Source: an uncultured Alphaproteobacteria bacterium (GTDB lineage: Bacteria; Pseudomonadota; Alphaproteobacteria; RF32; CAG-239). From it: a stretch of 64,000 nt of DNA. How positions within the stretch are numbered: the first letter of the stretch is position 1; each line of letters opens with the position of its first letter. Where the stretch lies: positions 203 to 64,202 of the forward strand of contig CANRJO010000005.1 in the NCBI GenBank assembly GCA_947630965.1, written 5' to 3'. Position numbers and translations under genes: made by a program. The notes under the pieces are model-generated. The model made no database searches. It was not told the DNA's origin and saw only the letters and a program-made list of their open reading frames with translations. This document shows, in pieces, positions 55,600 to 55,704 of this stretch.

Positions 55600-55704
55600 A
55601 CATCAAAAAAAAGGTACCTTAAAAAATCGGGGTTGTCAAGCTCTAAAACCCGCAGTTTCGCGTTGGTTAATCTGTTGCATTTAAAGGTACCTTTAAATTG
55701 ATGT
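55600..55704. promoter_or_regulatory. Candidate invertible promoter flanked by 25-bp inverted repeats
   Basis: IR-L 55600-55624 ACATCAAAAAAAAGGTACCTTAAAA matches the reverse complement of IR-R 55680-55704 (ACATCAATTTAAAGGTACCTTTAAA) at 21/25; internal minus-strand TTGACA (55634-39)-N17-TACCTT (55611-16). Confidence 0.6.

Follow-up and report, generated by a model that had tools for sequence, protein, structure and literature searches.

In Bacteroides, the Mpi system employs a trans-acting small serine invertase for many dispersed promoter switches that govern surface structures of these gut bacteria, and inverted repeats there flank a short segment with promoter elements upstream of the surface-structure gene. 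In the excerpt of PMC8375218 on which we draw, the repeat of B. fragilis Mpi is quoted as ARACGTTCGTN, and the invertible promoters of B. intestinalis measure 183-186 bp, with the transcription start inside the proximal repeat. Here we describe an element of similar layout from an uncultured gut alphaproteobacterium. It occupies positions 55600-55704 of a stretch of DNA of 64,000 nucleotides (nt), hereafter called the window, and lies between acpS and a gene for a secreted protein that starts at 55929 (the 55929 gene). Judging from sequence comparisons, we regard it as probable that this element is a working inversion switch of the Mpi type, in which only the -35 box would flip and the -10 box would be part of the crossover site.

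The element shares with the Bacteroides system the inverted repeats that flank a short segment with a promoter element upstream of a gene for a putative surface structure, and it would also share the trans-acting invertase that serves many dispersed switches. The repeat cores resemble each other in part: AAAGGTACCTT here agrees with the Mpi consensus, as quoted in the excerpt, at 8 of 11 positions, the differences being C>G, T>A and G>C. On the other hand, the host does not belong to the Bacteroidales, and the segment is 73 or 83-85 bp long rather than 183-186 bp. Whereas the whole promoter lies inside the segment in the Mpi system, only the -35 does so here, and the -10 candidate is located in the repeat. 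Furthermore, the promoter is sigma-70-like (TTGACA), the central dinucleotide TA is symmetric, about 57 candidate switches are found in 1.5 Mb, and each of them would serve a gene for a single protein rather than a polysaccharide operon.

With respect to its logic, the closest parallel that we found is the mpl (P35) family of Mycoplasma penetrans, which according to an excerpt of PMC2268961, where Horino et al. (2003) are the source, comprises 38 lipoprotein genes at several loci, most of which are assumed to be switched one by one, each through an invertible promoter beside it. There, as would be the case here, a large surface-protein family has switches for the individual genes (38 there, 55 here). 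However, the candidate recombinases named in that excerpt are Xer-like tyrosine enzymes, whereas those described below are serine enzymes of the Mpi type, and the phylum and the promoter design differ as well.

Invertases of the Hin/Gin type act on crossover sites whose dyad symmetry is centred on 2 bp, invert segments of kilobase length and need an enhancer and Fis. Common to them and to the present system are a serine recombinase of about 190-200 amino acids (aa) with a C-terminal helix-turn-helix as well as palindromic sites of about 26-28 bp with A/T-rich half-sites. In contrast to the Hin/Gin systems, the 73-bp segment has no room for an enhancer, and the central dinucleotide is symmetric. 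A different class of elements is represented by the Correia elements and the NIME/dRS3 mosaics of Neisseria, which are common in intergenic DNA near surface-protein genes, measure about 100 bp and have inverted ends, and some of which carry outward promoters. Unlike these, the elements described here show no target duplication, hold a constant place and direction with respect to one gene family, have ends that are full palindromes and are accompanied by a matching invertase family. Within the library searched, we found no description of invertons in these Alphaproteobacteria and none of a promoter whose -35 and -10 are split across an inverted repeat; supplementary tables of inverton surveys (e.g. 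PMC11602134) might list such elements.

Anatomy of the element at 55600-55704

A repeat search identified two arms of 25 nt that are complementary at 21 of 25 positions (84%) and separated by a gap of 55 nt (Table 1). Both arms contain the palindromic core AAGGTACCTT, which is present three times in the window (55611, 55684 and 57045) against an expectation of 0.02, and none of 100 shuffled sequences had three copies. The first two cores are 73 bp apart from start to start. Since the -10-like hexamer TACCTT belongs to the palindrome, it is found on both strands, and it would be available on both sides of the segment in either orientation. A perfect -35 hexamer, TTGACA (TGTCAA when read on the plus strand), is found on the minus strand at a distance of exactly 17 nt from the TACCTT that the left core presents on that strand, and it points away from the 55929 gene toward the acpS terminator. 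At the corresponding distance of 17 nt upstream of TACCTT in the right core, the sequence is GGTTAA (55665-55670), so that a -35 is lacking on the side of the gene.

Inverting the segment by script between the two central TAs moves the single TTGACA-N17-TACCTT from the minus to the plus strand, where it is followed by TAAATTGAT and faces the 55929 gene. The flipped layout thus has the design of a fixed promoter further downstream, in which TTGACT (58268-58273), a 17-nt spacer and TACCTTTAAATTGAT (58291-58305) precede the 58327 gene. In all of these points our analysis agrees with the first-pass annotation of this DNA, which had described the repeats with their common core 73 bp apart, TACCTT on both strands, the outward-pointing TTGACA at 17 nt, the missing -35 at the right core and the promoter that arises upon flipping in silico; its remark that the window encodes no invertase also holds true.

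The solo site at 57036-57063 is situated 39 nt before the 57085 gene. In the fixed promoter at 58268, the change to GCTACC means that the palindromic site is lost. The genes at 57085 (solo site, no -35) and 58327 (fixed promoter, broken palindrome) look like a locked OFF and a locked ON version, respectively. As for the leader of the 55929 gene, units resembling repetitive extragenic palindromes (REP), of the type GTCATGCTGAAC...GTTCGGGATGAC, make up its part from 55755 to 55883; with about 75-100% identity they recur many times in this genome as well as in other genera and even in other families of the class, and many genomes of the family and the class contain the unit.

Table 1. Positions of the element and of the features around it in the window
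Feature	Position	Strand	Remarks
acpS (holo-ACP synthase)	55118..55507	+	Pfam ACPS, E 1.9e-17; ends upstream of the putative switch
acpS hairpin terminator	55512..55533	both	scored on + and - by the terminator scan
Left recombination site (candidate)	55600..55624		central TA 55615-55616; outer half ACATCAAAAAAAAGG; inner half is the TTGACA-bearing A side
OFF-state -10 candidate TACCTT	55611-55616	-	within the left core
Candidate invertible segment	55616..55688		73 bp, core centre to core centre
-35 TTGACA	55634..55639	-	points left, away from the gene as assembled (OFF)
Right recombination site (candidate)	55680..55704		central TA 55688-55689; TACCTT 55688-55693 (+), which would be the -10 for the gene after inversion
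Leader	55705..55928	+	about 235 nt between -10 and start codon; REP-like palindromic repeats 55755-55883
Terminator-like hairpin in leader	55807-55827		from repeat and terminator scans
Gene under the putative switch, 347-aa secreted Cys-rich protein	55929..56972	+	one of 55 paralogues; C-terminal Lcl_C (DUF1566), C-type-lectin-like domain
Solo site	57036..57063		outer half, core AAGGTACCTT (57045-57054), outer half; without inner segment and without -35
Second-subfamily paralogue, 358 aa	57085..58161	+	only the solo site upstream
Fixed promoter TTGACT-N17-TACCTT	58268..58296	+	left half of the core altered to GCTACC
Paralogue, 356 aa	58327..59397	+	behind the fixed promoter

A genome-wide family of elements and the genes behind them

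The window is from contig C5 of a genome (G000) of 1.52 Mb in 102 contigs with 42.7% G+C, and the other C-numbers used below denote further contigs of this genome. AAGGTACCTT occurs 102 times in it. A search for further repeat pairs, which the first-pass annotation had proposed together with one for recombinases, gave 60 pairs of neighbouring GGTACC cores at a distance of 60-100 bp. Their spacings are 73 bp (31 pairs), 72 (1), 83 (6), 84 (18), 85 (3) and 99 bp (1), with none between 73 and 83. In 57 of the 60 pairs, one side but not the other, named the A side, has a perfect TTGACA at a distance of exactly 17 nt from TACC, and the hexamer on the opposite B side is GGTTAA (30), TTAAAA (23) or another poor one. 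This one-sided -35 is kept across families of inner sequence (73, 83-84 and 85 bp) that are otherwise unalike. Full-length copies of the 55616-55688 segment elsewhere in the genome are 91-98% identical to it.

In the 57 elements, the half-sites follow the consensus gCA-W5-AAGGT up to the central TA in all four classes (outer and inner, on each side), which implies that each core forms the centre of a longer palindrome of about 28 bp. A target-site duplication was not found over the 57 elements, in that no offset or length exceeds what re-paired flanks give. Flanks match only at offsets 0-4, inside the shared half-site, and they do so in 20-22 of 57 cases, while the controls average 16-18 and reach 20-23 at most. 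Neighbouring spacing classes are roughly one helical turn apart, and in either inner family the AA/TT content has its maximum at a period near 11.5 bp, where the two families amount to effectively two independent sequences and the z-scores are inflated. This period is compatible with intrinsically bent DNA, and together with the spacing classes it fits a tight, phased loop.

The genes that follow the elements were grouped by blastp of the three window genes against all ATG-initiated open reading frames of the genome of at least 120 aa. This defined a family of 55 members, 51 of which match the 55929 gene, and it takes up roughly 4% of the genome. The N-termini of the family consist of a signal peptide, MRY[VL][ML]FLL..NVA.A, together with a stretch rich in Cys. 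A weak match to Pfam Lcl_C/DUF1566 (E 4.3e-7, under the cut-off) was obtained for the 55929 protein. The AlphaFold2 model of this protein, made from 21 paralogues (pLDDT 84), is similar by Foldseek to a Bacteroides ovatus fimbrial protein (4eps, E 4e-7) and to the C-terminal domain of Legionella Lcl (8q4e, E 7e-4), and the next matches are C-type lectins with non-significant E-values. We read the family as candidate secreted lectin-like adhesins.

We scored the orientation of the elements in the 600 nt upstream of all 55 genes by script and inspected unclear cases by eye. An element is present upstream of 46 genes, and in 43 of them its TTGACA end is distal to the gene, as in the window (OFF). 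These calls followed from the strict script rule in 36 cases and from inspection in seven, namely two of the 85-bp class that the classifier had missed and five with one degenerate core or a misclassification by the script. The TTGACA end is proximal (ON) at three genes, C19:2904-3980, C31:319-1515 and C37:5841-6875, one of which was also called by eye; the core at the last one has changed to GGTACT. One gene, 57085 in the window, has only the solo site, and eight have no site in reach, three of them near contig ends and one being the 58327 gene with its fixed promoter. The elements in the opposite orientation are those at C19:4127-4200, C31:71-144 and C37:5587, to which an orphan in the ON arrangement is added that sits between two convergent genes (C19:2750-2823). 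Compared with paralogous flanks, the flanks of these copies change partner within the 8-bp AGGTACCT. Since the ON copies differ from each other in the family of their inner sequence and in the subfamily of the gene, several separate flips are implied. At C33:11501, the core is only 33 nt away from the start codon. The remaining elements precede genes for large secreted proteins (906, 1647 and 2120 aa) and one mpi gene.

Some arrangements go beyond a single pair. At C93:1177-1342 and C2:39124-39390, two elements stand in tandem or back to back between divergent genes for secreted proteins, which suggests multi-site rearrangements in the manner of a shufflon. Further solo sites of two outer halves are located at C4:64812 and in the sister species described below.

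Candidate invertases and the situation in related genomes

The window's contig carries no recombinase; serine recombinases are encoded on C14, C16 and C35, and tyrosine recombinases on C4, C12 and C13. The latter comprise only two Xer-sized proteins and one integrase-like protein of 411 aa. Three proteins of about 198 aa (C14:26990-27586, C16:1896-2489 and C35:143-790) lie above the cut-off of 272 bits for the NCBIfam equivalog NF009949 ('master DNA invertase Mpi family serine-type recombinase'), with 309.3, 280.8 and 281.5 bits. They are 57-68% identical to each other, have an invariant catalytic R7-V8-S9 and match Pfam Resolvase with E-values of 6e-34 to 5e-31. For one copy, structural alignments extend from end to end with both gamma-delta resolvase (1zr2, residues 2-193) and Gin (4m6f, residues 1-191, E 1.5e-13). 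The proteins have the build of small serine recombinases, with a catalytic domain that contains the nucleophilic Ser and a C-terminal helix-turn-helix. The enzyme that would act on the elements is most likely one or more of these three invertases, working in trans.

Two of the mpi-like genes, in the regions C14:26207-27586 and C16:1896-3257 (loci L017 and L019), are each followed by a paralogue of about 192-199 aa with 26% identity (on C14, 26207-26785), in which the catalytic motif R-V-S is replaced by D-K-C. Glycosyltransferase and sugar-nucleotide genes come after this pair of genes, and the pair is also present in relatives, for instance at G012:C2:38344-39738. The non-catalytic partner may be a regulator at the head of polysaccharide loci. 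Furthermore, at the end of contig C14 (27743), the TTGACA end of an element faces the mpi-like gene C14:26990-27586, with a hairpin and a T-run between them and the partner core past the contig end. This mpi-like gene may itself be under a switch.

Genes of the Mpi family above the cut-off were present in 12 of 31 genomes searched, all of them from the window's own family, and in 1 of 14 named control genomes. The 80 closest mpi loci are mostly from bins of uncultured gut Alphaproteobacteria. In these relatives, cores that fit fully (AAACGTTCGTTT and variants) follow the mpi genes, the motif being present at 26 of the 80 loci. Inverted pairs 85-214 bp apart were found at six of the 80, of which that at L078 looks like chance, such that about five, 85-207 bp apart, are convincing; the pair at L111 encloses TTGACA-N17-TATAAT just inside a repeat.

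A comparison with related genomes had likewise been proposed by the first-pass annotation. A sister species (G001) of the same genus, whose acpS DNA is 75% identical, has the same architecture at other loci, but its acpS locus has unrelated genes downstream and no GGTACC. Overall, G001 contains 121 WAASGTACSTTW sites per strand, compared to 3 for a control with the reversed pattern. In 20 regions that were fetched from it (the first places listed, L117-L136), the pairs are spaced by 83 (7), 84 (11) or 95 bp (2). The end with the one-sided TTGACA-N17-TAC[CG]TT is distal to a homologous gene (MKYVLFL...) at 15 of the 15 loci at which the gene was found, L134 having been judged by eye. The inner sequence in G001 cannot be aligned to that of the window genome, the matches in G001 being of site length only, and full copies of the element were absent from the other 59 genomes of the family that were searched. 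An architecture that is conserved while its filling is not argues for a function of the sites, of their spacing and of the one-sided -35.

Counts of sites on the two strands, with the control in second place, were 37/38 versus 12/11 in the window genome and 115/115 versus 9/6 in G001. One further genome (G010) shows a modest excess (8/10 versus 1/2) with pairs 85-165 bp apart, and the other 28 genomes are at control level. Among the genomes scanned, the expansion of sites is confined to the genus of the window genome.

In G001, either G or C may stand beside GTAC, and the combinations GGTACC, CGTACG, GGTACG and CGTACC all occur. The base is always C in the inner B half (15 of 15) and mostly G in the inner A half (12 of 15), which makes it a potential marker of the crossover. 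When this natural marker was used to look for the crossover point, all 15 scorable elements from the 20 regions were in one orientation. Elsewhere, an unrelated metagenome contig with 36% G+C (L026) has two sites of the TTTAAAGGTACCTTTAAA type at 39 and 191, i.e., 152 bp apart, and this pair may be a Mpi-type inverton of another organism.

Evidence on inversion, other explanations and the proposed mechanism

The proposal of the first-pass annotation that the element is a compact ON/OFF inversion switch with an invertase acting in trans gains support from the comparison across the genome, namely from the one-sided promoter in 57 of 60 pairs, the 55-gene family, the occurrence of opposite orientations and the three Mpi invertases, which together point to inversion in living cells. 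Several observations, however, weigh against it. The read evidence consists of four runs from one sample of one study, in the form of Logan contigs that were compared with 54000-59500 and cover the organism at a depth of 4-6. In all four runs the left-flank contig ends at 55633, which corresponds to the assembled (OFF) junction, and only that orientation is seen; as Logan contigs drop rare variants, a minority orientation is neither shown nor excluded by them. Among 117 junction flanks in the assembly, there is no near-identical flank joined to both ends of the segment, and the run search returned no RNA runs containing the stretch. TACCTT matches the -10 consensus at three of six positions (T, A and the final T), and a simple promoter scan of 55400-56000 found 0 promoters, a scan that misses TACCTT because of this very match of three in six. 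The 73-bp segment is far shorter than the 183-186 bp printed for Mpi invertons in the excerpt of PMC8375218, the core departs from the Mpi consensus at three positions, and the central TA is symmetric. Finally, one orientation is in strong excess, with 43 versus 3 in the window genome and 15 versus 0 in the G001 sample, and mere copying of the upstream module together with its genes would lead to such an excess as well.

Among the contig joints and loose ends listed, those near the element derive from other copies in the genome, e.g., at C1:54600, C10:25960 and C70:2309. Three pairs of flanks (marked 'DIFF') were considered as one locus in two forms and were rejected, since in these pairs it is paralogous modules that match, at 92-96% over 45-50 nt. 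An exact-pattern scan of a metagenome contig collection gave seven stretches, none of which is from this organism or has a paired element.

Could the element be something other than an inversion switch? It might be a static regulatory module, in which the palindromic sites are operators for a looping protein such as a repressor and which was spread by gene duplication, with the opposite copies as old, rare rearrangements. Duplication would indeed produce the dominance of one orientation (43 of 46 element-bearing genes and 15 of 15 in G001), the spacing steps of one helical turn and the AA/TT phasing of about 11.5 bp suit any looping protein, and the second orientation is not seen in the contigs. 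Nevertheless, we consider such a module unlikely, because the dominant orientation aims the only good -35 away from the gene, and a conserved rightward promoter, for which the core at C33:11501 leaves just 33 nt, is not visible. Further arguments against a static module are at least three to four independent flips with exact boundaries in the core, three Mpi-family invertases in a genome whose core resembles their published repeat, and the classic Mpi-type inverted pairs beside mpi in relatives.

A mobile miniature repeat, either a miniature inverted-repeat transposable element of the Correia kind or a mosaic of the NIME kind, would interpret the arms as terminal inverted repeats and the copies as products of transposition. 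The numerous near-identical copies (91-98% to the window element), their length of about 105-120 bp with terminal inverted repeats and an outward promoter-like end, the many contigs that break at copies and the species-specific inner sequence, with full copies in 0 of 60 other family genomes searched, would all be in keeping with this. Yet there is no target-site duplication beyond the shared half-sites, and the copies are not scattered, but precede genes for secreted proteins, toward which their orientation is fixed. Each arm is itself palindromic with recombinase-type half-sites on both sides, 'empty' outer-outer sites occur in the same context in both species, and the sister species has the same architecture around a different inner sequence, all of which makes transposition a very unlikely origin. 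As to a chance inverted repeat next to a chance promoter-like hexamer, the A+T-rich context is all that speaks for it, and it is refuted, practically beyond doubt, by the shuffles (0 of 100 with three cores), by the repetition of the design 57 times in the genome and by its presence in the sister species.

If the element is an inversion switch, it would work as follows. Two palindromic sites of about 28 bp, with gCA-W5-AAGGT half-sites around TA and 73 bp apart from centre to centre, would be the recombination sites. The segment between them would bring only the -35 TTGACA at one of its ends, and either palindromic core would supply TACCTT as the -10. In the assembled state, presumably OFF, the -35 would pair with the left core, and a short leftward RNA would probably stop at the two-way acpS terminator, such that the 55929 gene would see only GGTTAA-N17-TACCTT. 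The invertase would bind both 28-bp sites, synapse them across a loop of 73 bp (seven turns) or, in the other class, 84 bp (eight turns) and exchange strands at the central TA. The result of inversion would be TTGACA-N17-TACCTT-TAAATTGAT in front of the 55929 gene, i.e., the ON state. Given the symmetry of the central TA, the chemistry would also permit the two sites to recombine with loss of the segment, and such a deletion is predicted to leave a solo site of two outer halves like those before the 57085 gene, at C4:64812 and in G001. A flip of the whole stretch from 55611 to 57045 is predicted to hand the -35 to the 57085 gene, similar to a shufflon. Since most of the approximately 57 switches precede members of the 55-gene family, each cell may display a small, changeable subset of 55 secreted lectin-like proteins.

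On a larger scale, the genus may have expanded Mpi-type invertons to about 57-60 minimal split-promoter switches per 1.5-Mb genome, each independently switching one of about 55 adhesin genes to give combinatorial surface variation, and the same enzyme could delete segments or invert between distant sites; we consider the arguments for this wider scenario to be evenly balanced. If the switches work as proposed, no denser set of promoter invertons would have been described (about 38 per Mb), and the set would contain the shortest invertible segments that have been ascribed to a Mpi-type serine invertase, which has a bearing on how small a DNA loop these enzymes are able to close. The design would be economical in a new way, with the -35 as the only mobile part and the -10 serving at the same time for crossover. 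Uncultured gut Alphaproteobacteria that are known only from metagenome bins would then be able to vary their surface in a manner comparable to Bacteroides and mycoplasmas. Inverton finders that are based on reads may miss or mis-assemble such short, repeated elements.

With respect to the wider neighbourhood, an Rfam search over 55300-58500 gave eight weak matches, all far under the gathering scores, and no known RNA accounts for the region. Upstream of acpS, the interval 52494-55116 holds a spoT/relA-type gene (710 aa) and then a DUF2062 gene. Downstream of the three paralogues, a uvrD-type helicase is encoded on the minus strand (59455-61788).

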